The position numbers and the translations under genes were made by a program. A model generated the notes under the pieces. The model saw only the letters and a program-made list of their open reading frames with translations, was not told the DNA's origin and ran no database searches. Below are positions 1,452 through 62,351 of a stretch of 64,000 bases of DNA, in pieces. The DNA is taken from positions 2,425,442 to 2,489,441 of the forward strand of contig OY730440.1 in NCBI GenBank assembly GCA_963422655.1, written 5' to 3'. Positions within the stretch are counted from its first letter, which is position 1. Each line of letters opens with the position of its first letter. This DNA is from Acidimicrobiales bacterium. GTDB taxonomy: Bacteria; Actinomycetota; Acidimicrobiia; Acidimicrobiales; Aldehydirespiratoraceae.

Positions 1452-2375
1452 TCAAACGGCGTCGAGGATCTCAGCGCCGCGCCGAATGTGGTCGGCGCTG
1501 GTGGCTTCGTCGTTCATGGGCAGCATGAACAGGTCGTAACAGGTCCGATGGGCGCTCAGGGCCGACGCGATCTCTTCGGGGGTGCCCGCTACCCCGTAGA
1601 GGTCGACCATGGCTTCGGGAAGCAGGGCCGCGGCCTCGTCGAGACGGCCTTGGAGCATCAGGGCTCGTACCTCGGTGGCGGTGGTGTCGTCGAGACCGAA
1701 AGCAACCCGAATGTCGGGTGGTGCATCTACGGCCATGTAGGAGAAATGGCGCAGCACCCGTTTCCGCTCCAGCGCGTCGTAGGCGAGATAGGCCGACCAG
1801 GCGATCCGGGCCGACCCCCGGGACCGTATCTCGGCTGTCACCGCGGGCAGGTCGGCTAGGGGCTTGGCTGACAGGATGACCCAGTCGGCCCGAGTAGCGG
1901 CCAGATGTTGGACCCGTGGTCCTCGACCGGCCACCGCCACCGGCACCCGGCCCTCGAACCACCCCAGGGTGGCCCCGTTCACTGTCTCACCGGCCAGCAG
2001 GCGGCGGTTGTGATCCAGCGTCTCTTGCAGGGCCGTGAAGGGTTTGGAGGTGTCGACCCCGAGGGGTTCGAGCACCCGGCTGCCGCCCACCCCCAACCCA
2101 TGCACGACCCGACCCGGGGCCAGCTCGGCCAAGGTGGCGATAGCAGCTGCGGTGGCGACCGGATGGCGGCTGAACGGGTTGGTGATGGCCGGTCCGACGG
2201 TGAGGTCGGTGGCTTCGACGATGGCGGTCAGGGCTACGTACACGTCGCGCTCGGTGCCTTCATCGGCTACGAAACAGGTGGTTGCCCCCAGCGACTGGGC
2301 CAGTCGAGCCAGCTCCACCAGCCGGCGCACGGGCTGGGTGGGCTCGAACCACACCCCCCATTCAACTCCACTCAT
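1452..2375 (-). CDS. LLM-class (luciferase-like) flavin/F420-dependent oxidoreductase
   Basis: 307 aa. Segments TVGPAITNPFSRHP and GLGVGG resemble methylene-H4MPT reductase-like LLM proteins. Confidence 0.8.
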   Translation of the reverse strand: MSGVEWGVWFEPTQPVRRLVELARLAQSLGATTCFVADEGTERDVYVALTAIVEATDLTVGPAITNPFSRHPVATAAAIATLAELAPGRVVHGLGVGGSRVLEPLGVDTSKPFTALQETLDHNRRLLAGETVNGATLGWFEGRVPVAVAGRGPRVQHLAATRADWVILSAKPLADLPAVTAEIRSRGSARIAWSAYLAYDALERKRVLRHFSYMAVDAPPDIRVAFGLDDTTATEVRALMLQGRLDEAAALLPEAMVDLYGVAGTPEEIASALSAHRTCYDLFMLPMNDEATSADHIRRGAEILDAV

Positions 2376-2406
2376 GGTTCAGTGATTCCACTCATGGTTC
2401 AGCGAT
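2367..2406. repeat. Tandem duplication, 2 x 20 bp (19/20 identical): tccactcatggttcagtgat / tccactcatggttcagcgat
   Basis: Read directly. Each copy carries tcat (ATGA on the minus strand). Copy 1 supplies the LLM start at 2375 and copy 2 supplies the creatininase stop at 2392. Confidence 0.9.
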
Positions 2407-3195
2407 CGGAGCCGGGGCGGGGTCGGTGCGCCCGAAGTCGAAGCCGGCGATCTCGGCCACCTGCTCGCCGAGCAGGGCGATGGCAGTCTCGAAGAGGTGC
2501 TTGCCTTCGGTGGCGCTGGCGCCGGTGGGGTCGCCGATATGACCGTCCGGGCCGAAGTCGTTCGATAGCCATCCGAAAGAGGCCGAGCCCCCGAACCGCA
2601 AGTGCCGGTTGGCGGCGAGACGGCTGGGCACGGCCCGTCCGGCCCGGTCGAGATGAACGAGGTGGGGGCGCAGATGCATGAACACCGATGTCTCCTGGTG
2701 GCCTCCGTGGATTCCCATACCTTCCTCGGCTGTTGGCGATGCGCCGCCTTGGTCGGGGGGCACGAACGGGTGGATCAAGAAGGTCATCAGGCCGTGCCGG
2801 AGCCTGATCTCCCGGCAGGCCACGTTGAGCAGGGCCGAGTTGCCGCCGTGACCGTTGAGGAACACCAAGCGGCGGGCCCGGGTGGCGGCGACGGATCCGG
2901 CTATGTCGTCGAGCACGGCCAGCAGGGTGGTGGCCGACAGCCATAGCGTCCCCGACGACCAGGCGTGCTCGTTCGATTTCGACACCGCCAGCGTGGGTAG
3001 GAGCCACAGATCGTGGCTGTCGCCGTGCTCGGCGACGAGGCTGGCTGCGGCTTCGTGAGCGATCACATGATCGACCGACAGCGGCAGGTGGGGCCCGTGC
3101 TGTTCTACGGCCCCGACCGGTTGGATGATCACCGCTGATTCGGTGATTCGCTCACCGACCTCCGGCCCGCTGAGATCTTCGAGACGCCTGCTCAT
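2392..3195 (-). CDS. Creatininase-family amidohydrolase
   Basis: 267 aa. Motifs VEQHGPHLPL, FLNGHGGN and GIHGGHQET are typical of the creatininase/ArfB/MftE family. Confidence 0.8.
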   Translation of the reverse strand: MSRRLEDLSGPEVGERITESAVIIQPVGAVEQHGPHLPLSVDHVIAHEAAASLVAEHGDSHDLWLLPTLAVSKSNEHAWSSGTLWLSATTLLAVLDDIAGSVAATRARRLVFLNGHGGNSALLNVACREIRLRHGLMTFLIHPFVPPDQGGASPTAEEGMGIHGGHQETSVFMHLRPHLVHLDRAGRAVPSRLAANRHLRFGGSASFGWLSNDFGPDGHIGDPTGASATEGKHLFETAIALLGEQVAEIAGFDFGRTDPAPAPIAEP

Positions 3196-3208
3196 GGATC
3201 GACCCCGC

Positions 3209-3775
3209 TCAGAACGGGCTCAGGCCCATCCGGTTGCGTATCGATACCAGCTCGCCCAGATGGTTGAAGCCGTGGCCCACCGCCGTCCATTTCAGGAACC
3301 AGGCCGTGGTCTGGCCTTCCCACATGGCATAGAGCCAGCCGAACCGATCCTCGGGGGTGTCGACGGCCTGAAGGGCTGGGCTCACTGCCGGAATCTGGTC
3401 CAGGTCCGGCAGCCCGGTCTCCTCCAGCCAGGATGCGGTGGTCTCGATGACGTCGAGGGTGTAGCCGCCAACCGCTTCGGGGTCCAAGATGTCGAGCAGC
3501 TCGGTGTCTTCGGCCTCGGCCAGCCCTCGCCACAAGTCCTCGTCGGTACCGATGTGGTCGGTCCACCGCTCGACCACGGCTCCGGTGTCCCGGAGAACGC
3601 CGTTGACGGCTATGTCGTGGTGGCGGGCCAGGTGCCAGAGGATGTAGGTGGGAGCGATCCCACCCCCGTCGATTCGTTCATGACGACGCTCAGCGGGCAT
3701 CATGCCCAGCACTCCCCGGTCGATCTTGGCCCGCAACGACCGGAGATCGTCGACTATCCACGCCCTCAGATCCAT
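3209..3775 (-). CDS. DinB-family (four-helix bundle, metal-dependent) protein
   Basis: 188 aa. His-containing helices ILWHLARHHD and GHGFNHLGE fit the DinB_2-like pattern. Confidence 0.6.
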   Translation of the reverse strand: MDLRAWIVDDLRSLRAKIDRGVLGMMPAERRHERIDGGGIAPTYILWHLARHHDIAVNGVLRDTGAVVERWTDHIGTDEDLWRGLAEAEDTELLDILDPEAVGGYTLDVIETTASWLEETGLPDLDQIPAVSPALQAVDTPEDRFGWLYAMWEGQTTAWFLKWTAVGHGFNHLGELVSIRNRMGLSPF

Positions 3776-3881
3776 GGCCCCATCGTAAGCGGTCGGGCCG
3801 GTCGCCCATCGCGGTCAGCACGCGGGCATCGTTGGTTGTGGAGGCTCGGCTGTCATTCTGCGCCGCGATGCGTCAATCGGT

Positions 3882-6404: not shown

Positions 6405-6414
6405 GGACCGGATT

Positions 6415-6477
6415 GTGCTGACTCTGGCGCTGATAGTTTCGTTGTGGTTCGGGGTCGGTCGAAGCTCCTGCGGCTAG
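6415..6477 (+). pseudogene. Remnant of a second protease-like 5-prime end (20-codon signal-peptide fragment)
   Basis: GTG..TAG encodes VLTLALIVSLWFGVGRSSCG. DNA and peptide resemble the protease start at 3891-3950 (VLVLGLVVALWFGSAEAS), sharing cgttgtggttcggg. Confidence 0.4.
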
Positions 6478-6528
6478 GACGGGCGGCGTTGGTGTCGGTT
6501 CTTGTCCTCGGTGCGTTGACTTGAATAA

Positions 6529-6999
6529 CTACCCGTGGGCGGCGACGACGGCGATCTCCAGCTTCCAAGCCGGCTGAGCCAAAGCTGACACCACCACCAA
6601 GGTGGACGCGGCCCGGTGTCCGGCCAGAAACCGATCCCGTTCGGCTATCACAATTCGAAGATTTGCCGGGCTGTCGTACTCGGCGACCACATATGTGGTC
6701 GCCGACACGATGTCGCCCGATCCCATGGCGGCTTCGGCGAGCATGGCTGAGATGTTGGCCCACACCGTTGCGGCTTGGGCGTCGATGGTGTCGGGCACTG
6801 AACCGTCGGGACGGGTGGGCACCACCCCGGAGGTGTACAGCCACCTCGACGGGCGCTCGACCAGCATCGCATGGGCGTAGCGAGCCGCCGGCGGAGCGAT
6901 AGTGGCAGGGTCGATCCGGGACAGGGTGATGAGACGATCGTAGACTCCGAGCTCTATGACGCAACGGATGGCCCTGTACTTCCAGGACAAGCACGACAT
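6529..6999 (-). CDS. RidA/YjgF/Endoribonuclease L-PSP family protein (start uncertain)
   Basis: [41 protein letters not shown] matches the RidA fold pattern. The only in-frame starts upstream of the conserved beta-1 are ATG 6999, TTG 6990 and CTG 6924. Confidence 0.7.
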
Positions 7000-7981: not shown

Positions 7982-7987
7982 CCACAG

Positions 7988-8044
7988 CCGTAAGTGAGTT
8001 GCTTGACCGTGAGTGAATTGCTTGACCGTGAGTGAGTTGCTTGG
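7988..8044. repeat. Tandem repeat, 3 x 19 bp (ccgtRagtgaRttgcttgR)
   Basis: Read directly. It begins 7 bp after the LLM stop at 7981. Confidence 0.9.
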
Positions 8045-8083
8045 AGCCGTGGGGAATGGCTGCGGGCCAAACGGCGTGGGTGC

Positions 8084-9502
8084 ATGGCAGCGGGCTACAC
8101 GGGTCGTGGTGTGGGCTCGGTGACGAGAACCCACCGGCCCTCGCTGTTGATCCACGGAGGGGTTGTCGTCACGGTTGACGATCATGGCGCCGTGCATGAC
8201 CCGGGCTGGGTGTACGTGAACGGCAACCGAATCGTCGAGGTCGGTTCCGGGACGCCTCCCCAAGCCCGCTGTCGCCAGGCCGGGGCCGTCATCGACGCGG
8301 CCGGGGCCGCGGTCATGCCGGGCATGGTCAACGCTCATACTCACCTGTTCCAGGGTTTCTTTCGGGGTCTGGCCGACGACAAGACTCTGCTGGACTGGCT
8401 GCGGGACTGTATCTGGCCGGCTGCGACTCATCTAGACGGCACCACCATCTACTTGGCTGCTCTGGCTGGGTTGATCGAAAATCTCCGGAGCGGGGCTACC
8501 ACGGTTATCGATCATCAATACGTCCATGTCGACGCCAACCTCGACGACGCGGTGTGCCGGGCCGCCGACGAGCTCGGTGTGCGGTTCGTGCTGGCTCACG
8601 GGTGGGCCGACCGCAACTACCACCCGCCACTGATGGAAACCGCCGATATCGCCATCGAGCGGGCCCGCACCGTCCGTGACCGCTGGGACGGCCACCACGA
8701 CGACCGTATGCGGGTGGAGCTGGCCCCGCTCATCGCGTGGGGCTGTTCGGACGAGGCCATGCGAGCCACGGTGGCCGAGGCCCGGAGCTGGGGTCGGGGC
8801 ACGCACATCCATTGCGCCGAGACAGCGGTGGAGGTGGAGATGAGCTTGAACGAGCGGGGGATGCGCCACGTCGAATGGCTGGAGTCGTTGGGGGTGCTCG
8901 GCCCCGACGTTCAGCTCGCTCACAGCGTGTGGCTCGACGACGGCGAGCTCGATCTCATCGCCTCGTCGGGTTCGGTGGTGGTTCATTGCCCGGTGTCGAA
9001 CATGTACCTGGCCTCGGGGGTGGCCCCCGTCGTCGAGATGAAACGGCGGGGCATCACCGTGGCGCTGGCCAGCGACGGGCCGGGGAGCAACAACCGCCAA
9101 GACATGTTCGAGGTTCTCAAGGCCACGGCGCTGCTCCAGAAAGTACATCACCTCGATGCGGTGGTGCTTCAACCCGAGGAGGTATTGCATATGGCCTGCC
9201 GGGGCGGGGCGGCTGCTTTCGGTCTGCGGGATGCCTTCGGTGCCATTGCCGCAGGACAACGAGCCGACCTGGTAGTGGTGGACCTGCGGTCGCCGTTCGT
9301 GATGCCGGTTCACCGGGTGCCCAGTGCCCTGGTGTACAACGCCACCCCCCGTGACGTCCTCGACGTGATCGTCGATGGTCGGGTTCTCATCCGCGACCGT
9401 GAGCTGGTCGGAATCGACGAGCAGGCCGTGCTGGCCCGCGCTGGCGTCGCGGCCCGGGCTCTGTTCGAACGAGCCGGAATTGCTACCCGCCTCCGTAGTT
9501 GA
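8084..9502 (+). CDS. Amidohydrolase-family deaminase/chlorohydrolase (MTA/SAH deaminase or guanine deaminase-like)
   Basis: MPGMVNAHTHLFQ metal-binding HxH motif, later HCAE and SDGPGSNN motifs. Alternative start GTG 8120. Confidence 0.85.
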   Translation: MAAGYTGRGVGSVTRTHRPSLLIHGGVVVTVDDHGAVHDPGWVYVNGNRIVEVGSGTPPQARCRQAGAVIDAAGAAVMPGMVNAHTHLFQGFFRGLADDKTLLDWLRDCIWPAATHLDGTTIYLAALAGLIENLRSGATTVIDHQYVHVDANLDDAVCRAADELGVRFVLAHGWADRNYHPPLMETADIAIERARTVRDRWDGHHDDRMRVELAPLIAWGCSDEAMRATVAEARSWGRGTHIHCAETAVEVEMSLNERGMRHVEWLESLGVLGPDVQLAHSVWLDDGELDLIASSGSVVVHCPVSNMYLASGVAPVVEMKRRGITVALASDGPGSNNRQDMFEVLKATALLQKVHHLDAVVLQPEEVLHMACRGGAAAFGLRDAFGAIAAGQRADLVVVDLRSPFVMPVHRVPSALVYNATPRDVLDVIVDGRVLIRDRELVGIDEQAVLARAGVAARALFERAGIATRLRS

Positions 9503-9556
9503 CTTGCAAGAGATAGTCGACTTGCAAGATGTAGCTAACTTGCAAGATGTACTTGG
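9496..9556. repeat. Tandem repeat, about 3.4 x 18 bp (tagYYRacttgcaagaKR)
   Basis: Read directly. Unit 1 contains the amidohydrolase stop codon (9500-9502). Confidence 0.9.
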
Positions 9557-9578
9557 GGCTGGGCCTGCTAGCTGTGAG

Positions 9579-9650
9579 TAACCGGTTCACTGTGACAACC
9601 GACTAACCGTTACAAACCGGCTACCTGTTACTAACCGGCTAACTGTGACA
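9579..9650. repeat. Degenerate tandem array, 4 units of 17-19 bp (taaccggYt.acYgtKaca)
   Basis: Read directly: taaccggttcactgtgaca / accgactaaccgttaca / aaccggctacctgttac / taaccggctaactgtgaca. Confidence 0.75.
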
Positions 9651-9861
9651 AACGGGATCGTTGGTGAACCAGCAGGCCAGCACCGATGGCACCGGCTTGG
9701 TTACCGAGCCGGGTTTGCAGGAGAGCGGGCGGCATCCGGCGGTGCCGGGTGAGAACGTTGAAATGATGGATGAGCGCCTCGATGTTGCCGAGAGGATGTA
9801 TGTCGATATGGCCCACGCCCACCGCGAGCACCTGCCGGATCGACTCGTCCCGCAGTGAAGC
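9631..9861 (-). pseudogene. Possible C-terminal remnant of a ROK-family kinase/regulator
   Basis: The stop-to-stop frame encodes ...ESIRQVLAVGVGHIDIHPLGNIEALIHHF...LLQTRLGNQAGAIGAGLLV. The LGNxAGxIGA tail is typical of ROK C-termini. There is no N-terminal ATP-binding part and a stop lies at 9862-9864. Confidence 0.35.
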
Positions 9862-17546: not shown

Positions 17547-17672
17547 CTCGGATCTTGTTTCGGGTCGGCGCCCCACGCCGTCTCAGCCTCGGGGGCCCGG
17601 TCTCAGAGCTGCTATCCCCGGTTCGGGGTTGGCGGCGCCCCATGCCGTCCCTAAGGTTGGCCAGGCCACTTC

Positions 17673-17707
17673 CCCGTGGATTCTCACCTTGCCCGTGGAT
17701 TCTCACC
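17673..17707. repeat. Direct duplication of cccgtggattctcacc (2 copies, period 19)
   Basis: Read directly. It ends about 10 bp upstream of the proposed Tad operon first gene. Confidence 0.85.
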
Positions 17708-20983: not shown

Positions 20984-20989
20984 GCTTTG

Positions 20990-21037
20990 TCTTGGTGCCC
21001 GCCTCTCTTGGTGCCCGCCTCTCTTGGTGCCCGCCTC
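20990..21037. repeat. Perfect tandem repeat, 3 x 16 bp (tcttggtgcccgcctc)
   Basis: Read directly. It starts 7 bp after the tadC stop and lies in the only non-overlapping junction of the Tad operon. Confidence 0.95.
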
Positions 21038-21077
21038 TCGCCCGCTTCCCCCCGATACCTGGACCCGAGGAGGACCA

Positions 21078-21679: not shown

Positions 21680-22071
21680 GTGCTGACCGCCCTGGCCCGG
21701 CCTCGGGTACCGTTTGCGCGATGCAGTCCACGGTTCGTAGCTGTCTCCGACCGCCGTGGACCGTTCTGATGATTTCGGGCGAGCTCGACGTGGCGGGCGC
21801 TCCCGCGGTGCGTCAGGCCGTGGTATCGGCCGTCTCGGGGGGTGGAACCCGCCTGGCACTCGACCTCAGTGGGGTCGATTTCGTCGACTCCTTCGGTGTT
21901 GGTGTGGTGGTGGGAGCGCTCAAACGGGTGCGCCAGCGGGGCGGGGAGCTGGCGCTGGTGTGTCCGGTGCCGCGGATCCGCCGGGTGTTCGAGATGTGCG
22001 ACCTGGACCGGATCCTTATCTTGCACGAATCGCTCGACGACTTGGGGAACCCGATCGAGTCGGGGCTGTGA
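21676..22071 (+). CDS. STAS-domain anti-sigma-factor antagonist
   Basis: ISGELDVAGAP..LALDLSGVDFVDSFGVGVVVGALK..VFEMCDLD. ATGA overlap with tadE-like. Confidence 0.8.
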   Translation: MSADRPGPASGTVCAMQSTVRSCLRPPWTVLMISGELDVAGAPAVRQAVVSAVSGGGTRLALDLSGVDFVDSFGVGVVVGALKRVRQRGGELALVCPVPRIRRVFEMCDLDRILILHESLDDLGNPIESGL

Positions 22072-24006: not shown

Positions 24007-26958
24007 ATGCAAGGCATTCCATCCAGGCCCGTGCCCAACGCTCTGGTAATCGTCGAGTCACCGGCCAAGGCCAAGACCATCGCCGGATACCTCGGCGACG
24101 GTTTCGTGGTGGAGTCGTCGATCGGCCACGTACGAGACCTCCCTCGCGGCGCAGCCGAGGTGCCCAGGGCCTACAAGGGCGAGTCCTGGGCCCGGATGGG
24201 CATCGATGTCGACAACGGCTTCAAGCCGCTCTACGTGGTGAACTCCGACCGCAAGCCCCAGATCAGGAAGCTGAAGTCGTTACTGAAAGACGCCAACGAG
24301 CTGTTCTTGGCCACTGACGAGGATCGCGAGGGTGAGGCCATCGCCTGGCATCTGCTCGAGGTCCTCAACCCGAAGGTGCCGGTGAAACGCATGGTGTTCC
24401 ACGAGATCACCCCCGAGGCCATCAGTGCCGCGGTCCGATCACCCCGACAACTCGATCGGCGTATGGTCGATTCCCAGGAAGCACGGCGCATGCTGGACCG
24501 GCTCTACGGCTATGAGGTGTCCCCGGTGCTGTGGAAGAAAATCCTGCCCCAGCTCTCGGCCGGCCGGGTCCAAAGCGTGGCCACCCGGATAGTGGTCGAG
24601 CGGGAGAAGGAACGGATGGATTTCGTTTCCGCCGGGTATTGGGGCATCACCGGAACCTTCGTAGCCTCCGGACCGGAGCCGGACGAACGGTCGGAGTTCG
24701 AGGCTTCGCTGTCGGCGGTGGACGGGATTCGGGTTGCCGTCGGTCGTGACTTCGGTCCTGACGGCCGGGTGTCCCGTGACGCCACGTTGGTGGTCGACGA
24801 GGCCACCGCGGTGAGGTTGGCCGAGGATCTGCAGGGGGCCGACTTCATCGTCGATTCCCGGGAGTCCAAGCCCTACCGGCGCCGGCCCGCGGCTCCCTTC
24901 ATCACCTCGACCTTCCAGCAGGAAGCAGCTCGCAAGCTCAAGATGCCGGCCACAGCCGCTATGAGGGCCGCTCAGGGGCTCTACGACAAAGGTTTCATCA
25001 CCTATATGCGCACTGACAGCACTTCGCTGTCAGCCGCGGCAGAGATCGCGGCTCGTTCGGTGGTCGTCGAGCGTTTCGGCAAGCAGTTTCTTCCTGATCA
25101 GCCCCGCAAGTATGTCACCAGGGTGAAGAACGCGCAGGAAGCCCACGAGGCCATCCGCCCGGCCGGGGATTCCTTCCGGTCACCAGCCGATGTGACCAGT
25201 CGTGTTCCCCGGTCCGAGGCCCGGGTCTACGAGATGATCTGGAAGCGCACCCTGGCCAGCCAGATGATCGATTGCACCGGCGAGACGGTGCAGTTGCGTC
25301 TGGGGGCGGCGACAACCGCTGGTGGCCGGGCCGTGTTCGCTGCCAGCGGTACCGTCATAGGTTGTCGGGGCTTCCGCGAGGTGTACGAGGAAGGCACCGA
25401 CGAGACCGACAGGGCTGTTGAGTCCACCGACGAGCGTCGACTGCCGCCGGTGCAGGCAGGAGACACCGTCAGCAACGACAAGATGGACCCCACCGCCCAC
25501 CGGACCAAGCCCCCGGCCCGCTACACCGAGGCGTCGTTGATCCGCCGGCTCGAACAACTCGGCGTGGGCCGGCCCTCTACCTACGCCTCCATCGTGAGCA
25601 CCATCGCCGACCGAGGCTACGTGTGGAAGAAGGATTCGGCGCTGGTGCCGTCGTTCACCGCCTTCTCGGTGGTCAACCTGCTCGAACGACATTTCCCCAA
25701 ACTGGTCGACTACGACTTCACCGCCGAGATGGAGGACGACCTGGACAGGATCGCCCGAGGCGACGAGGAGTCGGTCCCGTGGCTGCATCGCTTCTATTTC
25801 GGTCACGACGACGATCCCGGACTGAAGGAGAAGGTGTCGGGTCGTCTCGTCGACATCGACGCCCGGACCGTCAACTCGGTCCGGCTGGGGGTGACAGCCG
25901 ACAGCTCGCCTGTCGAGGTTCGAGTCGGCCGCTACGGCCCATTCGTGCAGATGGGCGACGACTCGGCCTCGATCCCCGAAGACATCCCCCCCGACGAGCT
26001 CACCGTCGAACGAGCCCTCGAATACCTCGACCAGCCCCGGGTGGGCCGCTTGGTGGGCACCGATCCCGACACCGGGCTCGACGTCTACGCCAAAGCTGGC
26101 CGGTTCGGCCCTTATGTCCAGATCGGCACCAGCGACCAAGTGGCGGGCAAACCCAAGACGGCGTCGCTGTTCGAGACCATGAGCCTGGAGACGGTTACCC
26201 TGGCCGAAGCCCAGCAGGTGCTGTCGCTGCCTCGCACGGTGGGCGCCGATCCGGCCGACGGGATCGAGATCACCGCGCACAACGGCCGTTACGGGCCGTA
26301 CGTGAAGAAAGGCTCCGAGAGTCGCAGTATCGACAGTGAAGCAAAACTGTTGTCCATCACCCTGGACGAATGCCTTGAACTCTTGGCTCAGCCCCGACGG
26401 CGGCGAGGTCAGGCCTCGCCCAAGCCACCACTGCGGGAGTTGGGACCCGATCCCGAGACGGACCGGACCATGGTGATCAAGGACGGGCGTTACGGTCCCT
26501 ACGTCACCGACGGCGAAGTCAACGCCTCGCTGCGCAAGGGTGACACCGTAGAAGGGCTGACCGAGCTGCGAGCCTCGGAGTTACTGGCCGACCGTCGGGC
26601 CCGGGGGGCGGCCCCCAAGCGCAGATCCACCGGTAAGCGCGGGGCCAGGACCACGGCGAAGAAGGACACCGCCGCCAAGAAGGGAACGGCCGCCAGGACC
26701 ACGGCGAAGAAGGGCACCGCCGCCAAGAAGGGAACGGCCGCCAGGACCACGGCGAAGAAGGGCACCGCCGCCAAGAAGGGAACGGCCGCCAGGACCACGG
26801 CGAAGAAGGGCACCGCCGCCAGGACCACAGCCGATGGGAGCCCTTCTGAGACTGGGCAGATTCTCGACCCGATTCCTCTCGGTCCGCAAGACCCCGTCGA
26901 CAAGAACGCAGTAGACCAGAACGCAACTGAGACCAGAACGCAACTGAGAAAAGACTGA
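24007..26958 (+). CDS. topA: DNA topoisomerase I with Lys/Ala/Thr-rich repetitive C-terminal tail
   Basis: Toprim start LVIVESPAKAKTI, LATDEDREGEAI, and GFITYMRTDS containing the active-site Tyr. Confidence 0.97.
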   Translation: MQGIPSRPVPNALVIVESPAKAKTIAGYLGDGFVVESSIGHVRDLPRGAAEVPRAYKGESWARMGIDVDNGFKPLYVVNSDRKPQIRKLKSLLKDANELFLATDEDREGEAIAWHLLEVLNPKVPVKRMVFHEITPEAISAAVRSPRQLDRRMVDSQEARRMLDRLYGYEVSPVLWKKILPQLSAGRVQSVATRIVVEREKERMDFVSAGYWGITGTFVASGPEPDERSEFEASLSAVDGIRVAVGRDFGPDGRVSRDATLVVDEATAVRLAEDLQGADFIVDSRESKPYRRRPAAPFITSTFQQEAARKLKMPATAAMRAAQGLYDKGFITYMRTDSTSLSAAAEIAARSVVVERFGKQFLPDQPRKYVTRVKNAQEAHEAIRPAGDSFRSPADVTSRVPRSEARVYEMIWKRTLASQMIDCTGETVQLRLGAATTAGGRAVFAASGTVIGCRGFREVYEEGTDETDRAVESTDERRLPPVQAGDTVSNDKMDPTAHRTKPPARYTEASLIRRLEQLGVGRPSTYASIVSTIADRGYVWKKDSALVPSFTAFSVVNLLERHFPKLVDYDFTAEMEDDLDRIARGDEESVPWLHRFYFGHDDDPGLKEKVSGRLVDIDARTVNSVRLGVTADSSPVEVRVGRYGPFVQMGDDSASIPEDIPPDELTVERALEYLDQPRVGRLVGTDPDTGLDVYAKAGRFGPYVQIGTSDQVAGKPKTASLFETMSLETVTLAEAQQVLSLPRTVGADPADGIEITAHNGRYGPYVKKGSESRSIDSEAKLLSITLDECLELLAQPRRRRGQASPKPPLRELGPDPETDRTMVIKDGRYGPYVTDGEVNASLRKGDTVEGLTELRASELLADRRARGAAPKRRSTGKRGARTTAKKDTAAKKGTAARTTAKKGTAAKKGTAARTTAKKGTAAKKGTAARTTAKKGTAARTTADGSPSETGQILDPIPLGPQDPVDKNAVDQNATETRTQLRKD
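26647..26826 (+). repeat. In-frame tandem repeat, about 3.7 x 48 bp encoding RTTAKKGTAAKKGTAA
   Basis: Units start at 26647, 26695, 26743 and 26791 and are nearly identical. Confidence 0.9.
26915..26948 (+). repeat. Perfect tandem duplication, 2 x 17 bp (accagaacgcaactgag) inside the last codons of topA
   Basis: Read directly. It is not a multiple of 3, so it sets the present topA C-terminal frame and stop (26956-26958). Confidence 0.9.
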
Positions 26959-31248: not shown

Positions 31249-31270
31249 GCCTTCTCATGCTCTTCTCATG
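31249..31270. repeat. Short tandem duplication, 2 x 11 bp (gccttctcatg / ctcttctcatg)
   Basis: Read directly. It duplicates an ATG. Copy 2 holds the ATG of the small membrane ORF; the copy 1 ATG opens a 9-codon out-of-frame ORF. Confidence 0.7.
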
Positions 31271-31416: not shown

Positions 31417-32496
31417 GTGAGCGCCGAGGGGGTCGAAGTGGTCGACTGGGCCTTGGCCCGCCGGGTCGCGGCCCGAACCGCGGCCCGGGAGCCTTACACC
31501 TCCGCGTACCACCGAAAGGGTCTGGAATCCGAATTCGACGAGCTCACGGCCCAAGCCGAAGACTTGGTGGCCACAACCACGGGTCTGCGGTCACAAGCGG
31601 GTCCGGCCCGGGGACGGGTCACCGATCGAGCCGGTTGGATCGACGCCAACCTTTCGTCGTTCCAGCGGTTGCTGCGTCCTGTCACCGACAAGCTCGGCAC
31701 CCGTATGGACAAGACGACGGCTCCGTTGGCCCGCAAGCTGGCCGGGGTCGAGCTGGGGATGATGCTGGGGTGGATGTCGGCTCGGGTGCTGGGTCAGTAC
31801 GACCTGCTGGTCGTCGAAGACGAGAACCCCGACCAGCAAGACATCGTCTATTACGTTGCCCCCAACGTCTTGTCCTTGGAGAACCGGTTCGCTTTCAGAT
31901 CCCACCAATTCCGGTTGTGGCTGGCCCTGCACGAGGTCACGCACCGGGCCCAGTTCACTGGTGTCGCTTGGATGCGGCCTCATTTCCTGGCCTTGGTCTC
32001 TGAGGCCATGGAGTCGGTCGATCCCGACCCTCGGCGCTTCGTTGCCGCTTTGCAGCGACTGGTCGAAGCCCGTCGGCGCGGTGTCGATCCCTTGGCCGAC
32101 GGCGGTTTGATGGGCCTGCTGGCCACCGACTCGCAGCTCGAGACGTTCAACCGGGTAGCCGGCCTGATGAGCCTGCTCGAAGGCCATGGCGACGTGACCA
32201 TGGATCGGGCCGGTCAAGGGCTCGTTGCGTCGGCCGGTCGCTTCGGACGGGTTTTGCGCCAGCGTAGGATGTCGGCGCGGGGGCTGACCAGGGTCGTCCA
32301 GCGTCTTATCGGTCTCGACGCCAAGATCAAGCAGTACGCCCAAGGGGAGCACTTCATCGAGACGGTGGAAGCAGCCGGGGGTGTCGATTTGTTCGACCGG
32401 GTCTGGTTGGAGCCCGAGAACCTGCCGACTCTCGTCGAGATCAGAGCCCCGGAGCTCTGGATCACCCGTATGAACGGGTCGACGATGGCGGCCTGA
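31417..32496 (+). CDS. Zinc-dependent metalloprotease-like protein (DUF2342 / putative hydrolase family common in Actinobacteria)
   Basis: HExxH in WLALHEVTHRAQF. GTG 31417 chosen as start (VSAEGVEVVDWALARRVA). Confidence 0.75.
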   Translation: MSAEGVEVVDWALARRVAARTAAREPYTSAYHRKGLESEFDELTAQAEDLVATTTGLRSQAGPARGRVTDRAGWIDANLSSFQRLLRPVTDKLGTRMDKTTAPLARKLAGVELGMMLGWMSARVLGQYDLLVVEDENPDQQDIVYYVAPNVLSLENRFAFRSHQFRLWLALHEVTHRAQFTGVAWMRPHFLALVSEAMESVDPDPRRFVAALQRLVEARRRGVDPLADGGLMGLLATDSQLETFNRVAGLMSLLEGHGDVTMDRAGQGLVASAGRFGRVLRQRRMSARGLTRVVQRLIGLDAKIKQYAQGEHFIETVEAAGGVDLFDRVWLEPENLPTLVEIRAPELWITRMNGSTMAA

Positions 32497-32524
32497 GGTC
32501 AGAGACGTAGAGGCAGAGACGTAG
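32496..32524. repeat. Tandem duplication (aggtcagagacgtag / aggcagagacgtag)
   Basis: Read directly. It fills the spacer between the stop at 32496 and the tilS ATG at 32527. Confidence 0.8.
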
Positions 32525-36261: not shown

Positions 36262-37059
36262 ATGCTGCTCGCCATCGACGTCGGCAACACGCACACCATG
36301 GTGGGCGTTTACGACCCCGACGCCGATCACGGGGAAGGGGCAGCGGTGGGGCTCATCGACCATTGGCGGCTGTCCACCGATCAAGAGCGCACCGCCGACG
36401 AGCACGGCGTCACCATCAGATCGCTGCTCGACACGATAAGCCTCGACCTCGAGACTGATGTGAGCGGGGTGGCCATCTGCTCCGGTGTGCCCCGTATCCT
36501 CTCCACCCTGCGGGACATGGTACACCGGTACCTCCCGATGGAGCCGGTGGTGATCGGGCCCGGCGTGAAGACGGGCATGGCCATCCTCTACGACAATCCC
36601 AAAGAGGTCGGCGCCGACCGGATCGCCAATGCTGTGGCCGCCTACGACCTCTACGGTGGCCCCACCGTGGTGGTCGATTTCGGCACGGGCAACAACTTCG
36701 ACGTGATCTCTTCAGCCGGGGAGTTCATCGGCGGGGCCATCACCCCTGGGATCGAGATAAGCCTCCAAGCTCTTTTGGGCCGAGCCGCAGCACTGCGAGC
36801 CGTCGAGTTGGTCGAACCCCGTAGCGTCATCGGTAAGTCGACAGTCGAGTCGGTCCAGGCCGGCACTCTTTATGGTTTCACGGCCATGATCGACGGCATG
36901 AACGCCCGTTTCTCGGCCGAGCTGGGCGAGGTCGACATCGTGGCCACCGGCGGCTTGGCCCACCTGATCGCCCCCCTTTCGTCCACCATCGAGCACGTGG
37001 AGCCCTTCCTCACCCTTCACGGCCTGCGCATCGTGCACGGCCGCAACCGCGACCGATGA
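36262..37059 (+). CDS. coaX: Type III pantothenate kinase
   Basis: LLAIDVGNTHT, GADRIANAVAA, VVDFGTGNNFD. Confidence 0.9.
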   Translation: MLLAIDVGNTHTMVGVYDPDADHGEGAAVGLIDHWRLSTDQERTADEHGVTIRSLLDTISLDLETDVSGVAICSGVPRILSTLRDMVHRYLPMEPVVIGPGVKTGMAILYDNPKEVGADRIANAVAAYDLYGGPTVVVDFGTGNNFDVISSAGEFIGGAITPGIEISLQALLGRAAALRAVELVEPRSVIGKSTVESVQAGTLYGFTAMIDGMNARFSAELGEVDIVATGGLAHLIAPLSSTIEHVEPFLTLHGLRIVHGRNRDR

Positions 37060-37096
37060 ATGACCGCGCCGATGAATGACTGCGCCGATGAATGAC
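37049..37096. repeat. Tandem repeat, 3 x 16 bp (gcgRccgatgaatgac)
   Basis: Read directly. Copy 1 contains the coaX stop within ATGA (37056-37059) and copy 3 contains the lysS ATG at 37088. Confidence 0.9.
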
Positions 37097-43963: not shown

Positions 43964-44135
43964 TCACAGGACCCCGGTACATTGGCGCCGCTTCTCAGTC
44001 CCGATGCCTGACCCATATTCGGAGGAATGGCCGATGTTCGAGCGGTTCGACGACAGGGCTCGTCGGGTGTTGGTGCTGGCGCAGGAAGAGGCCCGCCTAC
44101 TTCGCCACGACTACATAGGCACCGAGCACATCCTT
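43964..44135 (+). repeat. Copy B of the clpC leader/5-prime-codon repeat, fused to ispDF
   Basis: See 39747-39920. It includes the same ggagga RBS (44021-44026) and ATG (44034). Confidence 0.9.
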
Positions 44136-46197: not shown

Positions 46198-46353
46198 CTG
46201 GTCGAAGCGTAACCCGGTTCCGGCATTGGCGGATCGGCGACGGCCCCGTCCCGTCGCCTCTTCGATTCCTACCGAGTCGTCGGCCCGCTCTGCACCGTCC
46301 CCCCACGGTTCCTGATCGAAAGCTAAAGTCTTTCTGCGAGCTAGAGTTAAAAT

Positions 46354-46400
46354 CGGGAAGCAGCGCAAGTGCAGCGCAAGTGCGGGAAGCATCGCAAGTG
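46354..46400. repeat. Nested direct repeats (cgggaagcaKcgcaagtg twice, with an extra cagcgcaagtg between)
   Basis: Read directly, upstream of the LytR_C gene and next to an AT-rich patch (46310-46350). Confidence 0.7.
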
Positions 46401-46435
46401 CGTCGTAAATGCGGCCAGCAGTAGAGCGAAGGTAG

Positions 46436-47071: not shown

Positions 47072-47169
47072 TCCATTTGTCGATGACGGGCCGCCACAGT
47101 CGCCCCTTCTGCGACAAGCCCCTCAACTGATCCGCCCATAGCCGGGCCGGGCGGGGCAAGCTTGTGTCC

Positions 47170-48183: not shown

Positions 48184-48245
48184 CTCTGCAGGGCTCACCG
48201 GCCCGACACCGGCCGGCCGCGAACGAACTGGACGGGCGCGCCCCA

Positions 48246-48273
48246 GATGATCAGCGCTGGATGATCAGCGCTT
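48246..48273. repeat. Tandem duplication, 2 x 14 bp (gatgatcagcgctK)
   Basis: Read directly. Copy 2 carries the stop codon (48265-48267, minus strand) of the small membrane ORF. Confidence 0.85.
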
Positions 48274-48462
48274 GGCCTTGGCCGATATCACCCACAGGAC
48301 CAGCGTGACGATGGCCGCCGCCACCAGACCCACTCTCAAGAGGCTGAAGAGGGAGGCCAATACCCACTGCACCATCGTGATCACGGCGAAGGCCATGATC
48401 ACGGCCAAGGCGATGACCACGGGGAGGGGCAGTCGTCCGGACGGACTCTCGTTGCTGTTCAT
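48265..48462 (-). CDS. Small two-TM membrane protein (65 aa), hypothetical
   Basis: This is the C-terminal tail of the spurious 842-aa antisense ORF. From ATG 48462: MNSNESPSGRLPLPVVIALAVIMAFAVITMVQWVLASLFSLLRVGLVAAAIVTLVLWVISAKAKR. Good GC3 bias. Confidence 0.5.
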   Translation of the reverse strand: MNSNESPSGRLPLPVVIALAVIMAFAVITMVQWVLASLFSLLRVGLVAAAIVTLVLWVISAKAKR

Positions 48463-51095: not shown

Positions 51096-51099
51096 CCTT

Positions 51100-53593: not shown

Positions 53594-55978
53594 ATGGCTG
53601 ATGTTGCTGCAATCGACAACTCGGGCCGAGCAGCCGACCCGGTGATCATCGGTGGAGTCGCGATGCCCTGTCGCCTCTCGCCTCAGAGAACACGGCGAAC
53701 GACAAGACGCAGGCGGGTCATGGTGAGCCTGGCGCTGATCCTGGCCGTTATATCGTCGATGCTGCCGGTAGCCGCGGTGAATGCGCAGGACGCGGTGGAT
53801 GCGCAGGACTCGGTTTACATCGAGGGCTTGTCGTCCTCTGGAACCAATTTTATCGAAGTGGAAGAGAACACCAAGATGGTCATGGCCAAACTGGTGCTCG
53901 TTGGTGTTGAAACCCTCGAGCTGGAGTCCAATCAAGAAATCCGATGGTCAGTCATCGGTCGTGATGGTAGATACCATTTCCATACGCTCCCTTACCGGGA
54001 TCGTGGATTACCGGGTCAGATACCCAAGCTGATGTTTGATAATGGCCCGAATTTCCCGAATTTTGAGGATCCTCAGGACGAAAATAAAGATAATATCTAC
54101 GAATTTTCTATCGCAGCCTTTGTAGTGACCTTAAGATACGTAAGTTCCTACGGCTATTTTGGCACATATGAAGAGCATCCCGCTGCCATAGCGAAGTTGT
54201 CTGTGATCGTCACTGATGTAGGTGAGGACCCTCCTGATGCTCCGCAGTGGCATTCGATAAAATCTTCTCAGCCCTCGCAGATATCAGCGCAATGGATAGA
54301 ACCATCTAGACCCGGCCCATCGATCGATCGGTATGACCTCCAGATCCGGTCCACACCGGACCAGGCAGAGTGGGTCGACCTTGATCGGTCACGATTCAGG
54401 AGCGAGAGTAGCGGCTACGTACGCTGGCCGGTATATGACACGGTCGTTTCCGTGGATATTGTTGGGTTCAACTATGTCCCGTCAAAGTCATATCAATTAC
54501 GGGTACGGGGTGTGAACGCCGATGGTATCGGACAGTGGTCCCAACCTTCCGAGCCCGTAAACGTCTTTCCCAGAAGACCTGAATTCATCATTCCTACCGA
54601 TCTGTCAGTGGCAGAGAACACTACCGAGGTGGGGGTCTTGGAGGTCAAAGATTCCGGCGATTACCAGGATATCTTTTGGTCTCTAACCGACGACCGGTTC
54701 GAATTGACACCCGTGGATCCCCAGGTGTCCACATCCATGAAGCTGAGTTTCAAGCAGGCCCCGAACTTTGAGAAGCCTGGAGATGCTGACGGTGATGGTG
54801 TCTACGAGTTGAAGGTGACTCTCAGCGATGGCAGCGACCACTTCAGTGCCACCAGTACGGTGACTGTGATCGATGTCGCTGAGGCGCCGTCTGCTCCGGG
54901 TGAGCCAGCGGTTACCCCTCGAGGTGATACGGAGTTGGTGGTGGAATGGGACGAACCGGCCAACCCGGGTCCGACGATCACCGACTATGACGTCGAGTAC
55001 CGAGAAGGGCCCACTCGGCTGTGGGTCGATGCCCGCTATTCAGGTAGTCCAGAAAGCGCCACGAGTACGGCTATGACCATCAGTGGGTTGACCCGGCAGA
55101 CGGACTATGAAGTGAGAGTACAAGCCTACAACGACGAGGGTATAAGTGGCTGGTCCGCAGTCGCTACGGCCACCACCGGCGACGCCATACCGGACCCGGT
55201 CGATCCCCCGGATTCGGATTCGACCCCGACCCCGGACTCAGATTCGGATTCGGATTCGGATTCGACCCCGACCCCGGACTCGGATTCGGATTCGGATTCG
55301 GATTCGACCCCGGATTCGGATGCGGATTCGGATGCGGATTCGGTTGTTGACCCGGTCGGTCCTTCGGGTTCGGATTCGGGTTCTTCGGATGGTTCTGCCC
55401 GGGTTTGGGTGTCCCGGACGGTTTGGCCGTTCGTGGATGTGGCTGAGGATTCACCGCACAGGGAAAGTATCGGTGAGTTGACGTCTCTGGGGATCATCAA
55501 GGGTAAGACGGCGACGAGCTTTGAGCCGAAAGCCCTTTTGACTCGTGCTCATATCGCTTCGTTCCTGGCCCGGTTGTGGAGGAAGTCGGGGCAGGATTGT
55601 CCGAAGGGTGCCAGTGTCTGGGCCGACGTGGGTGCTTCTTCGGCGCACAGCGGCAACATTGATTGTCTGGGTGGTCTCGGTATCGTCACCGGCACTACTG
55701 AGATGACCTATGAGCCCTACCGACCGGCGTCTCGTTCGTCTATGGCCTCTTTCTTGGCCAACATCTGGCGTCAGTCCGGCAACAAGTGTCCGGTGGCCGA
55801 GGCGCCGTTGCCTTTCGACGATGTGCCCGGTGATGCTGATTATGCCGATGACGTGAAATGCATCTACGACCTTGGCATCACAGCCGGTAAGACAGCCACA
55901 AGCTATGATCCTGGTAGTACGGTTACCCGCGAGCAAATGGCCTCATTTCTGGCCCGCCTCTGGCGTAAATTACGGTGA
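53594..55978 (+). CDS. Secreted cell-surface protein: two cadherin-like and two FN3 domains, a Asp/Ser/Thr/Pro linker and three C-terminal SLH domains
   Basis: TM/signal SLALILAVISSMLPVAAVNA. FN3 signatures YQLRVRGVNADGIGQWS and YEVRVQAYNDEGISGWS. Cadherin-like PGDADGDGVYELKVTLSDG. Three SLH-like units (F[VD]DV...G[IL][IT].G....F.P....TR...ASFLARLWR) from about 55421 to the end. Strongly reduced GC in the 5-prime half. Confidence 0.85.
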   Translation: MADVAAIDNSGRAADPVIIGGVAMPCRLSPQRTRRTTRRRRVMVSLALILAVISSMLPVAAVNAQDAVDAQDSVYIEGLSSSGTNFIEVEENTKMVMAKLVLVGVETLELESNQEIRWSVIGRDGRYHFHTLPYRDRGLPGQIPKLMFDNGPNFPNFEDPQDENKDNIYEFSIAAFVVTLRYVSSYGYFGTYEEHPAAIAKLSVIVTDVGEDPPDAPQWHSIKSSQPSQISAQWIEPSRPGPSIDRYDLQIRSTPDQAEWVDLDRSRFRSESSGYVRWPVYDTVVSVDIVGFNYVPSKSYQLRVRGVNADGIGQWSQPSEPVNVFPRRPEFIIPTDLSVAENTTEVGVLEVKDSGDYQDIFWSLTDDRFELTPVDPQVSTSMKLSFKQAPNFEKPGDADGDGVYELKVTLSDGSDHFSATSTVTVIDVAEAPSAPGEPAVTPRGDTELVVEWDEPANPGPTITDYDVEYREGPTRLWVDARYSGSPESATSTAMTISGLTRQTDYEVRVQAYNDEGISGWSAVATATTGDAIPDPVDPPDSDSTPTPDSDSDSDSDSTPTPDSDSDSDSDSTPDSDADSDADSVVDPVGPSGSDSGSSDGSARVWVSRTVWPFVDVAEDSPHRESIGELTSLGIIKGKTATSFEPKALLTRAHIASFLARLWRKSGQDCPKGASVWADVGASSAHSGNIDCLGGLGIVTGTTEMTYEPYRPASRSSMASFLANIWRQSGNKCPVAEAPLPFDDVPGDADYADDVKCIYDLGITAGKTATSYDPGSTVTREQMASFLARLWRKLR
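53774..53809 (+). repeat. In-frame tandem duplication, 2 x 18 bp (gcggtgRatgcgcaggac) at the signal-peptide cleavage region
   Basis: Encodes AVNAQD/AVDAQD. Confidence 0.85.
55195..55345 (+). repeat. Coding microsatellite-like region (gattcg/gacccc units) encoding a DSDS/TPTP linker
   Basis: Read directly; in frame within the surface protein. Confidence 0.85.
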
Positions 55979-56033
55979 GCCCGTGATGCGCACTCGTTCG
56001 AGCTGACATCAATGACACCGGCGGCGGCTGGCA

Positions 56034-58648: not shown

Positions 58649-58649
58649 C

Positions 58650-60584: not shown

Positions 60585-61009
60585 AGCCAGTAGCGGTAGA
60601 CGTTGGATTCCCGCAGCTCGAAACCCAACTGCTGGTAGAGACGGTTGGCGGCGGTGCGTGATGGCCGCGAGGTCAGGTCGGTGCTGGTGGCGCCAGCGGC
60701 CCGGGCCATCTCCAGAGCGGCTCGGTTGAGCTCGAGTCCCACCCCTTGTCCCCGAGCCCTCTCGTCCACCACCACGTCTTCGATGCGGGTCCGGATGCCG
60801 GTGGGGATCCGGAAGCTGACCAGGGTGAGAGACCCGACGATCCCGGTCTCGGCCCGGGCTATCAGCAGTGCCGTGGCCGGTGAGGTCACGATCTGGTGGA
60901 GCTGGTTCCGGCCCGGCGGCGGTTTCGACGCCGAGAGCTGAGGTATGAGCCGAGCCATGGCCTCGACCAGTTCGTCGGTTACCTCGGTGCATTCGGTGAT
61001 GGTGAGCAT
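60581..61009 (-). CDS. GNAT-family N-acetyltransferase
   Basis: VVVDERARGQGVGLELNRAALEMAR acetyl-CoA binding motif. ATG 61009 preferred over 61036. Confidence 0.85.
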   Translation of the reverse strand: MLTITECTEVTDELVEAMARLIPQLSASKPPPGRNQLHQIVTSPATALLIARAETGIVGSLTLVSFRIPTGIRTRIEDVVVDERARGQGVGLELNRAALEMARAAGATSTDLTSRPSRTAANRLYQQLGFELRESNVYRYWL

Positions 61010-61065
61010 GGTTCCTCGGTGGGCCGGACATTCCAACCGAACATTAGCGGTGGCCGAGGCCGGGT

Positions 61066-61127
61066 CCCGGAGTTATCTGTTCGGCCCGGAGTTATCTGTT
61101 CGGCCCGGAGTTATCTGTTCGGCCCGG
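61066..61127. repeat. Perfect tandem repeat, 3 x 19 bp (cccggagttatctgttcgg) plus a 5-bp partial copy
   Basis: Read directly. The TAA stop (61092-61094, minus strand) of the PQQ dehydrogenase lies in copy 2, and the last ~11 codons are repeat-encoded. Confidence 0.95.
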
Positions 61128-62351
61128 CGCTATCCGGGCCACTGGTCCGCTCAGCGACAGGGTATAGAGTTCGCCGTGCGCATCCCGACCGAATGCGACG
61201 AGATCGCCACCGGGTGCCTCTACGCCCAGGTCACGGAACGAGACGACGCCCCCGACTGTCGACACGGCCCAGATGCGCGAGGTGCACCAGTCACCGAAAA
61301 CGTAGGCGCCGCCCAGGTCGTTGATGGCCGACCCCCGGTACACGTAGCCTCCGGTCACGCTGCATCCCTGATCCCGCCCGTATGCCCATACCGGGTCGAC
61401 GTGGCCGGGGGGCCGGTCGCCGGTGAAGGGGTGCAGCCCCTCTCGCAGTCGCCATCCCAAATTGGCGCCTGCTCCCGCACCGTTGGCAGCCAGCAGCAGG
61501 GTGACCTCCTCATAAGCGCCTTGGCCCACGTCGGCCACCCACAGGTCACCGGTGAGGGGATCGAAGGAGAACCGCCACGGGTTGCGGACACCGGTGAGGA
61601 AGATCTCGGGTCGGCCCTCGGCGCCATCGCTGAAGGGATTGCCGGGAGGGATGGCGTAGGGCTCACCGGCTTCGGGGGTCGGGTCGATGCGCAGGATGGC
61701 GCCCAGCCATGAGAACGGGTCCTGGCCAGCGTCGAGCGGGTCACCACCGGATCCACCGTCACCGAAGCCGATGTAGAGACGGCCGTCGGGGCCGATCCGT
61801 AACCCGCCTCCGTTGTGGTTGGAGAAGGGCTGCTCTTGGACCAGGATGGTTCGGCGCCGGCCGCTCAGGCCGACGCCGGAACGTTCGAAGGCTTCGACGT
61901 GGGTGTGACCGTCGAGGTCGGTGTAGTCGAGGTAGAGCCAGTTCTCGGTCACTGCCATGCCGAGCAGGCCTCGTTCGCTGTCGGTGGTGGTTTCGGCGCT
62001 GATGTCGAGGATGGTCTCTGCCACGACGCCCTGGTCGAGGTCGATCCGCAGCACCCGACCGGATCGCTCGGCCAGCCATACCAGGTCGTCTCCGGGGGCT
62101 ACGGCCATGTCGATGGGCTCGTCGAGGGTCACGATCACCTCGGCGTCGATCTCGACCGCACCGAGATCTGCCGCACCGAGATCTGCCGCACCGAGATCTG
62201 CCGCACCGAGATCACCGGTGACGAGGGCGGACGCTGAAGTCTCCGGACGGTTCGAATCGTCGCTGGCGCAGTCGGCGGTTGCGATGGCTACAGTCAGGAC
62301 TGCTGCGGCCGAGAAGGCGAAAGGCCGCAAGGCCGGGCTGGGTCGGGTCAA
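61092..62351 (-). CDS. PQQ-dependent sugar (glucose/sorbosone) dehydrogenase-like lipoprotein
   Basis: Lipobox VAIATADC. HNGGGLRIGPDGRLYIGFGDGGSGGDP. TTG 62351 overlaps the tesB stop (TTGA). Confidence 0.85.
   Translation of the reverse strand: MTRPSPALRPFAFSAAAVLTVAIATADCASDDSNRPETSASALVTGDLGAADLGAADLGAADLGAVEIDAEVIVTLDEPIDMAVAPGDDLVWLAERSGRVLRIDLDQGVVAETILDISAETTTDSERGLLGMAVTENWLYLDYTDLDGHTHVEAFERSGVGLSGRRRTILVQEQPFSNHNGGGLRIGPDGRLYIGFGDGGSGGDPLDAGQDPFSWLGAILRIDPTPEAGEPYAIPPGNPFSDGAEGRPEIFLTGVRNPWRFSFDPLTGDLWVADVGQGAYEEVTLLLAANGAGAGANLGWRLREGLHPFTGDRPPGHVDPVWAYGRDQGCSVTGGYVYRGSAINDLGGAYVFGDWCTSRIWAVSTVGGVVSFRDLGVEAPGGDLVAFGRDAHGELYTLSLSGPVARIAPGRTDNSGPNR
62156..62213 (-). repeat. In-frame tandem repeat, about 3.9 x 15 bp (ccgcaccgagatctg) encoding (DLGAA)n
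   Basis: Protein reads TGDLGAADLGAADLGAADLGAVEID just after the lipoprotein signal. Confidence 0.9.

Follow-up and report, generated by a model that had tools for sequence, protein, structure and literature searches.

Microhomology-mediated tandem duplications (MTDs) were first described in fission yeast, as mutations that can revert (Dan et al., PNAS 2021; PMC8639346). Wei et al. (PNAS 2026; PMC13167724; bioRxiv 10.64898/2026.02.28.708716) reported that MTDs form de novo in bacteria and archaea as well as in fungi and viruses, that they dominate the strain-level tandem duplications of 103 species, that they are mostly neutral and depleted from coding sequence, and that loss of the flap endonuclease Rad27 raises them. 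Here we consider a 64-kb window, i.e. the whole stretch of DNA that was analysed, from the genome of an uncultured member of the Acidimicrobiia, in which short tandem arrays cluster between genes and at gene ends. These duplications are genuine and local, their copy number differs from strain to strain, they are filtered by reading frame and position, they carry short microhomology, and they are denser than in relatives. The original prediction held that the pattern was undescribed; those papers already set out the mechanism, show that it is universal and report that coding sequence is depleted of it, and this case is a denser-than-usual instance of an already described process, although our literature search found no paper linking Acidimicrobiia to such repeats and no such link in the cited MTD work. 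All results derive from the window, from 160 control loci and from contigs of public sequencing runs.

The arrays resemble MTDs in being head-to-tail copies of segments that otherwise occur once, with short direct repeats on either side, and in being reversible, strain-variable, able to expand to multi-copy arrays, mostly neutral and depleted from coding sequence; their units are also short (<50 bp), a class that the MTD work describes as common in bacteria. They differ in that the arms, i.e. the bounding direct repeats, are mostly 1-3 bp here compared to the 4-25 bp arms which define published candidate sites, and in that the units fall narrowly between 10 and 20 bp, at a standing density 4-18 times that of relatives.

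Other repeat systems share some of these features. Ehrlichia ruminantium carries variable-copy tandem repeats with units of ~100-500 bp which, like the arrays of the window, have locus-specific, unrelated units, are concentrated between genes and at the ends of genes, and differ in copy number between strains. The large units there inflate the non-coding fraction, whereas here the units are 10-20 bp and ~94% of the sequence is coding; junction repeats of the Ehrlichia type can be set aside, the longest non-coding period being 29 bp and the periods of 36-48 and 279 bp belonging to in-frame coding repeats. The MIRU elements, reportedly one dispersed mycobacterial family of 46-101 bp, likewise occupy operon intergenic spacers, overlap flanking stop and start codons and vary in copy number, as variable-number tandem repeats. 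In contrast, each locus here has its own unit: pairwise local scores between units (4.55) lie at the level of shuffled units (4.48), and each unit was found at its own locus only, with no dispersed copies in the window. The units are thus mutually unrelated, as originally proposed, and a dispersed intergenic family of the REP/BIME or MIRU kind, for which there is no shared consensus, is rejected. Phase-variable contingency tracts consist of many copies of 1-9 bp units in promoters or 5' coding regions, where they switch expression. Their copy number also changes by slippage, but the 2-4 copies of 10-20 bp units seen here are placed where copy number leaves genes undisrupted, and the flanking proteins are unchanged at 2367, 37046 and 61066, so that this class too was rejected.

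Arrays were detected with Tandem Repeats Finder (TRF), and those with a score of at least 50, a period of 10-30 bp and at least 85% match were counted. The window (66% G+C) holds 13 such arrays, compared to an average of 0.18 and at most 2 in 100 dinucleotide-preserving shuffles of the same sequence, and the proposed comparison with shuffled controls, made for the window only, therefore favours a genuine signal. TRF recovered 14 of the 15 tandem loci listed in the original prediction at essentially the same coordinates, periods and copy numbers; the remaining one, a 2 x 11-bp repeat at 31249, has one mismatch, lies under the TRF threshold and could be chance. Three loci (383-417, 8048-8102 and 48378-48422) were added (Table 1). 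Non-coding units measure 10-20 bp, apart from two degenerate arrays of 28-29 bp. Rfam and tRNA scans of the window returned tRNAs only, none of them overlapping an array. ARAGORN alone called an 87-nt tRNA-Gln(ctg) at 63186-63272, which is absent from the Rfam tRNA matches at gathering score and may be false or an unusual tRNA.

The clearest regularity concerns where the arrays lie and in which frame. Genes, predicted by a self-trained codon model and then checked with Pfam, leave 3.5 kb (5.5% of the window) non-coding, in 53 gaps. Array density is ~3.4 per kb in this fraction and ~0.1 per kb in coding sequence (about 12 arrays in 3.5 kb against 6 in 60.5 kb). All 11 arrays with a period that is not a multiple of three are intergenic, lie across a stop/start junction or fall within a gene's final codons, and, in line with the coding depletion of MTDs, no out-of-frame array is internal to a gene. 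Arrays with triplet periods, by comparison, are internal to genes in 11 of 13 cases. The coding arrays internal to genes have periods of 12, 15 or 18 bp, which bears out the claim that they are multiples of three only, and the four that were translated (383, 48378, 53773 and 62156) correspond to a tail, a membrane segment, a signal-peptide edge and a linker, respectively. A selective filter is thus visible, with out-of-frame periods confined to intergenic DNA and gene ends and in-frame periods to tails and linkers. The proposed association with start and stop codons also holds, since 10 of the 13 non-coding arrays include such a codon or lie at most 10 bp from one, while the statement that most non-trivial spacers contain an array was too strong: 11 of 41 gaps of at least 20 bp do.

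The second line of evidence is variation between strains. The sequence is present in four public runs (X1-X4) from three samples, as independently built Logan contigs. X4, and in part X2 and X3, also hold a co-occurring strain ~98.5% identical to the window, and the same runs contain a far more abundant relative of ~95% identity. All eight indels of at least 5 bp between the window and these co-occurring strains (~95-98.5% identity) are changes in tandem copy number (Table 1, last column), as the suggested check for copy-number polymorphism had anticipated, and in this sense duplication is ongoing. As for MTDs, copy number thus varies among close strains (eight differences across runs X1-X4), and a single-copy state exists in an alternative allele: X4 has it at 2367, and the window itself has it at 6509, 17568, 22049 and 47145. 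The arrays at 37046, 32495, 17669, 53773 and 46350, which are older, are common to the window and the X4 strain, the latter carrying a 1-bp deletion at 37074 within the 37046 array. The window therefore combines alleles with one copy of a unit, duplications that are fresh and perfect, arrays that have expanded and others that have decayed (77-82% at 9496-9653); tandem duplication here is a continuous process. As to the abundant ~95% relative, its word depth is 120-420 in all four runs, compared to ~12 for the window strain, and it matches only 6-1372, 3127-3835 and 6916-9543. Its contigs skip 1727-3104 and 3836-6774, so that the relative is without the low-G+C fn3 gene island.

These observations are probably explained by tandem duplication at each locus, of the microhomology-mediated or replication-slippage type, together with purifying selection. 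A 10-20 bp single-copy segment flanked by a direct repeat of 1-5 bp would be copied head to tail, and later slippage would add or remove copies. Such duplications could arise anywhere, but frame-shifting ones would be purged, so that out-of-frame survivors would be left only in the non-coding 5.5%, at stop/start junctions, where the stop would be retained in one copy and the start in the second, or within the final codons of genes, while in-frame survivors would be tolerated in disordered tails, linkers and signal-peptide edges. Periodicity that runs past whole copies is the mark left by replication slippage or microhomology-mediated tandem duplication. Here the arms of the perfect arrays are 2, 3, 5 and 2 bp long, and those of the polymorphic insertions 3, 1, 2 and 1 bp; 8 of 10 clean events have an arm (1 bp or longer), compared to ~25% expected by chance, in agreement with the bounding repeats of MTDs. 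Slippage as the mechanism itself is an inference.

To place the density of the arrays in context, 160 control loci (2.5 Mb) were run at the same TRF settings; these comprise topA neighbourhoods of Acidimicrobiia-like metagenome-assembled genomes (MAGs), Streptomyces, other actinobacteria and JGI metagenomes. The topA gene of the window lies at 24031-26958, and its product is at most 69-73% identical to that of any species representative, the best matches all being Acidimicrobiia or Acidimicrobiaceae MAGs. A TopA scan of genome contigs and JGI metagenome contigs gave no relative above 73% identity; with no closer relative by TopA, the scanned loci were used as controls. Taking all periods together, the window is not distinctive (2.0 arrays per 10 kb, compared to 1.9 in Streptomyces), and its signal emerges only once multiples and non-multiples of three are separated. 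In-frame periods then occur at 0.7 times the control density, out-of-frame periods at 7.2 times (P=1.3e-5), and out-of-frame arrays of at least 95% identity at 18 times (P=4.8e-6). There is, then, a moderate and probably lineage-specific excess of out-of-frame arrays, which would reflect more frequent duplication or less effective purging in the lineage. The original claim of a high rate holds as far as the standing density is concerned, 4-18 times that of the 2.5 Mb of controls, but not for the rate itself, since mutation and retention are unseparated in such a count.

Several observations weigh against this explanation, some of which would fit an ordinary background instead, in which every bacterial genome carries such duplications and the window merely sits in the upper tail without any lineage excess. 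On the strictest measure, a second detector of our own that takes only perfect, non-triplet arrays of at least two copies and a period of at least 10 bp, the excess falls to 4.1-fold (P=0.02). Some Streptomyces loci are near the density of the window, the measurements in this genome come from 64 kb alone, and the eight strain events are unpolarised, gain and loss of copies being indistinguishable. A function could also have preserved the degenerate arrays at 9496-9653, which an operon follows. Finally, an arm longer than 3 bp is seen in only 1 of 10 events, compared to about half of the variable duplications in PMC13167724, and with arms this short the classical longer-arm microhomology is not the whole story.

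Such a background would also account for the 49 non-triplet arrays, and 38 perfect ones, carried by the 2.5 Mb of controls, and for the four control loci that come close to the window (1.3 compared to 1.4 per 10 kb). It is in keeping, too, with the window having been singled out after the fact, and with the independent 15-bp x4 array that a Microthrixaceae MAG (L010) carries at the orthologous junction between the Zincin_2 peptidase and tilS-like genes (L010 13700-13775). That junction measures 0-3 nt in three other relatives (L001, L002 and L081), compared to the 30-nt duplication spacer of the window, which speaks for the main explanation; with the L010 array, this neutral spot has been hit independently in another lineage. 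Even so, the window is the densest of all 100+ loci of at least 15 kb, the topA-centred sub-window has 4 arrays where ~0.45 would be expected (Poisson P ~0.001), and the topA neighbourhoods of the nearest relatives (L001-L007) have no such arrays, so that we regard a mere background as unlikely. It is possible, although we hold it to be doubtful, that the lineage, unlike its sampled relatives at ~70% TopA identity, is heritably biased to make or keep 10-20 bp duplications whose microhomology is very short. Such a bias might stem from altered processing of lagging-strand flaps by the nucleases that correspond to Rad27 in bacteria (a FenA-type nuclease or the Pol I 5'-nuclease), or from a single-strand exonuclease having been lost.

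The consequences of the duplications at gene ends bear on whether the repeats are there for a purpose. In the single-copy X4 allele at 2367, the creatininase stop and the monooxygenase start overlap as ATGA; with two copies this overlap is replaced by a 16-nt spacer and both proteins remain intact. At 37046 the coaX stop/lysS start junction exists in triplicate, and CoaX is identical with one, two or three copies. The in-frame TAA of the dehydrogenase gene at 61066 lies in copy 2, so that one copy would give a protein of 444 aa instead of 419 aa. The flanking proteins are the same with 1-3 copies at 2367 and 37046 and with 2-4 copies at 61066. In topA, the 17-bp duplication at 26913 sits atop an older, diverged copy (from 26899) and rewrites the C-terminal tail, a part of TopA which in relatives is quite different and ranges from 3 to 57 aa in length. 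The remodelling of gene ends that had been proposed is therefore found, albeit in a passive form (the ATGA overlap split at 2367, the dehydrogenase stop supplied by copy 2, the TopA tail rewritten), and the effects on C-termini and translational coupling look like by-products of where duplications survive rather than their purpose.

Two further observations were made on topA. Its Lys-rich C-terminal repeat is a 48-bp x3.7 array of 99% identity at 26644-26821. A joint in X4 (26730->26913) would give a 911-aa TopA with another tail, although it is weak, one contig side being 30 nt. Tandem duplications also occur at two junctions of a Tad-like pilus cluster (17756-22523), which has a CpaF-type T2SSE ATPase, two T2SSF genes, a DUF4244 gene and small downstream genes: one at 20990 in the window, the other at 22049 in the X4 strain.

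Functional repeats, i.e. operator- or iteron-like protein-binding sites, or phase-variable contingency repeats tuning operon junctions, would give a meaning to the arrays at 9496-9653, which are old but still recognisable upstream of their operon, to the altered stop-start spacing at several junctions, and to a strain-variable copy number like that of contingency loci. A different unit at every locus is not what such sites would predict. All junction types are affected, convergent gene ends (6509, 48246) as well as protein tails, the 2-4 copies of 10-20 bp units are unlike tracts of 1-9 bp, and the proteins beside 2367 and 37046 are the same at any copy number. Frame and position follow the pattern that a passive filter predicts, and we therefore consider function quite improbable as the reason for the arrays.

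An origin in assembly, polishing or library preparation is less probable still, and has been largely refuted by the contigs. Own-strain contigs show 0 differences from the window across the arrays at 2367, 17669, 26913, 31249, 32495, 37046, 46350, 48246, 48378 and 53773, the topA-tail array being covered by a contig spanning 26792-30285. The two-copy arrays are thus exactly reproduced by independent contigs, from four runs and three samples, which answers the proposed artefact test. Because these contigs were built with k=31, they break inside perfect arrays of at least three copies (20990, 61066 and 62156), which they are unable to span, as well as at the 7988-8043 array, where the repeat exceeds this length; the exact copy number of those perfect arrays consequently rests on the original assembly. 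The depth of the loop unitigs is nevertheless in agreement with the assembled copy numbers, at ~1.4x the flanks for 61066 (consistent with ~3 copies) and ~1.75x for 62156 (consistent with ~3.7). In other arrays the copies have diverged (77-95%), which is impossible for an artefact. Footprints of another kind of insertion, either target-site duplications of excised mobile elements, some of which overlap the 10-20 bp unit sizes in length, or off-target Cas1-Cas2 integration, are scarcely credible given that no intervening insert is seen between copies in the strain contigs, that up to 4 copies occur, that unit length is continuous from 10 to 20 bp and that there is no shared end motif.

If the duplications are of the microhomology-mediated or slippage type, the window makes the life cycle of a tandem duplication visible in a single stretch of DNA that is polymorphic within a few natural samples. 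The arrays illustrate a route from a 4-nt stop/start overlap to a spacer (2367, 37046 and 32495) and the replacement of C-terminal tails without damage to the gene (topA and the GSDH-family gene). They are usable as strain markers for this uncultured lineage, and they also cause annotation errors in the form of false long open reading frames, shifted stops and duplicated start codons. Should the excess prove to be genome-wide and tied to a change in repair genes, it would offer a bacterial test case for the Rad27/flap model, and a heritable bias, if true, would be a natural bacterial analogue of the duplication-mutator phenotype of yeast rad27, reshaping operon junctions and protein tails.

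Table 1. Tandem arrays of the window, units present once in it that are duplicated elsewhere, and copy changes in co-occurring strains (strand in brackets; percentages are identity between copies)
Position	Unit and copies	Setting	Basis	Change in other strains
383..417 (-)	18-bp x1.9, in-frame (SNGSNN/LNGSNH)	C-terminal tail of ABC ATPase gene 362-1354(-)	TRF, translation	+18 bp at 396, third copy (abundant ~95% relative)
2367..2406 (-)	20-bp x2.0, 95%	spans creatininase stop (2392-2394) and luciferase-like monooxygenase start (2375)	TRF, Pfam	-20 bp at 2367, single-copy allele (X4)
6510..6522 (.)	13-bp unit, one copy	intergenic, convergent gene ends		+13 bp at 6509, tandem duplicate (X2/X4 strains)
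7988..8043 (+)	19-bp x2.9, 91%	begins 7 nt past stop of monooxygenase gene 6968-7981, upstream of amidohydrolase gene	TRF	
8048..8102 (+)	degenerate 28-bp x2.0, 82%	shares spacer with 7988-8043 array	TRF	
9496..9547 (+)	18-bp x2.9, 82%, old, degenerate	starts in last codons/stop (9500-9502) of amidohydrolase gene	TRF	
9580..9653 (+)	18-bp x4.2, 77%, old, degenerate	158-bp gap upstream of molybdenum hydroxylase genes	TRF	
17569..17578	10-bp unit	209-bp spacer shared with 17669 array		+10 bp at 17568, insertion CGCCCCACGC (X4)
17669..17707 (+)	19-bp x2.1, 95%	209-bp spacer after monooxygenase gene 16563-17546	TRF	
20990..21039 (+)	perfect 16-bp x3.1, 2-bp arm	7 nt past TadC-like (T2SSF) stop, upstream of DUF4244 gene	TRF	
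22050..22064 (+)	15-bp unit, one copy	in frame, final codons of gene 21769-22071, shortly before next start		+15 bp at 22049, duplicated (X4 strain)
26913..26949 (+)	perfect 17-bp x2.2, 3-bp arm	within last 15 codons of topA (stop 26956-26958)	TRF	
31249..31270 (+)	weak 11-bp x2, 10/11 matching, possibly chance		seen in sequence, sub-TRF threshold	
32495..32524 (+)	14-bp x2.1, 93%	essentially entire 30-nt spacer, Zincin_2 peptidase stop to tilS-like start	TRF, Pfam	
37046..37096 (+)	16-bp x3.1, 94%	triplicates coaX stop/lysS start junction (GATGAATGAC)	TRF, Pfam	
46350..46421 (+)	nested: 29-bp x2.5 (77%) with perfect 11-bp x2.2 at 46360-46383	340-bp gap beside tRNA-Thr	TRF	
47146..47155 (+)	10-bp unit, one copy	spacer upstream of glycerate kinase gene		+10 bp at 47145, duplicated (X2/X4 strains)
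48246..48272 (-)	perfect 14-bp x1.9, 100%	overlaps stop (48265-48267) of 65-aa membrane-protein gene 48265-48462(-)	TRF	+5 bp (AGATG) at 48244, adjoining the array (X3/X4 strains)
48378..48422 (-)	18-bp x2.5, in-frame	transmembrane part of 65-aa membrane-protein gene 48265-48462(-)	TRF, translation	
53773..53814 (+)	18-bp x2.3, 91%, in-frame (VNAQDA/VDAQDS)	directly after signal peptide of fn3/SLH surface protein	TRF	
55208				+18 bp (other strain(s))
61066..61127 (-)	perfect 19-bp x3.3, 5-bp arm	3' end of GSDH-family dehydrogenase gene	TRF	
62156..62213 (-)	perfect 15-bp x3.9, in-frame, (DLGAA)n	N-terminal linker, after lipoprotein signal, of GSDH-family dehydrogenase	TRF	

Some larger rearrangements and repeats were seen in the same stretch. 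Two islands of low G+C (0.59), at 3882-6404 and 53594-55978, code for fn3 surface proteins of large size. A 279-bp x2.3 module repeat occurs in one of them; SLH domains occur in the other, together with 36/42-bp repeats that differ in length in X4. The IspDF protein (gene 44034-45308) has a Clp_N Pfam match at residues 16-34, and contigs jump between 40290 and 44136. These data fit a fusion in which the leader and initial codons of clpC were copied onto ispDF (segments 39747-39920 and 43964-44135).

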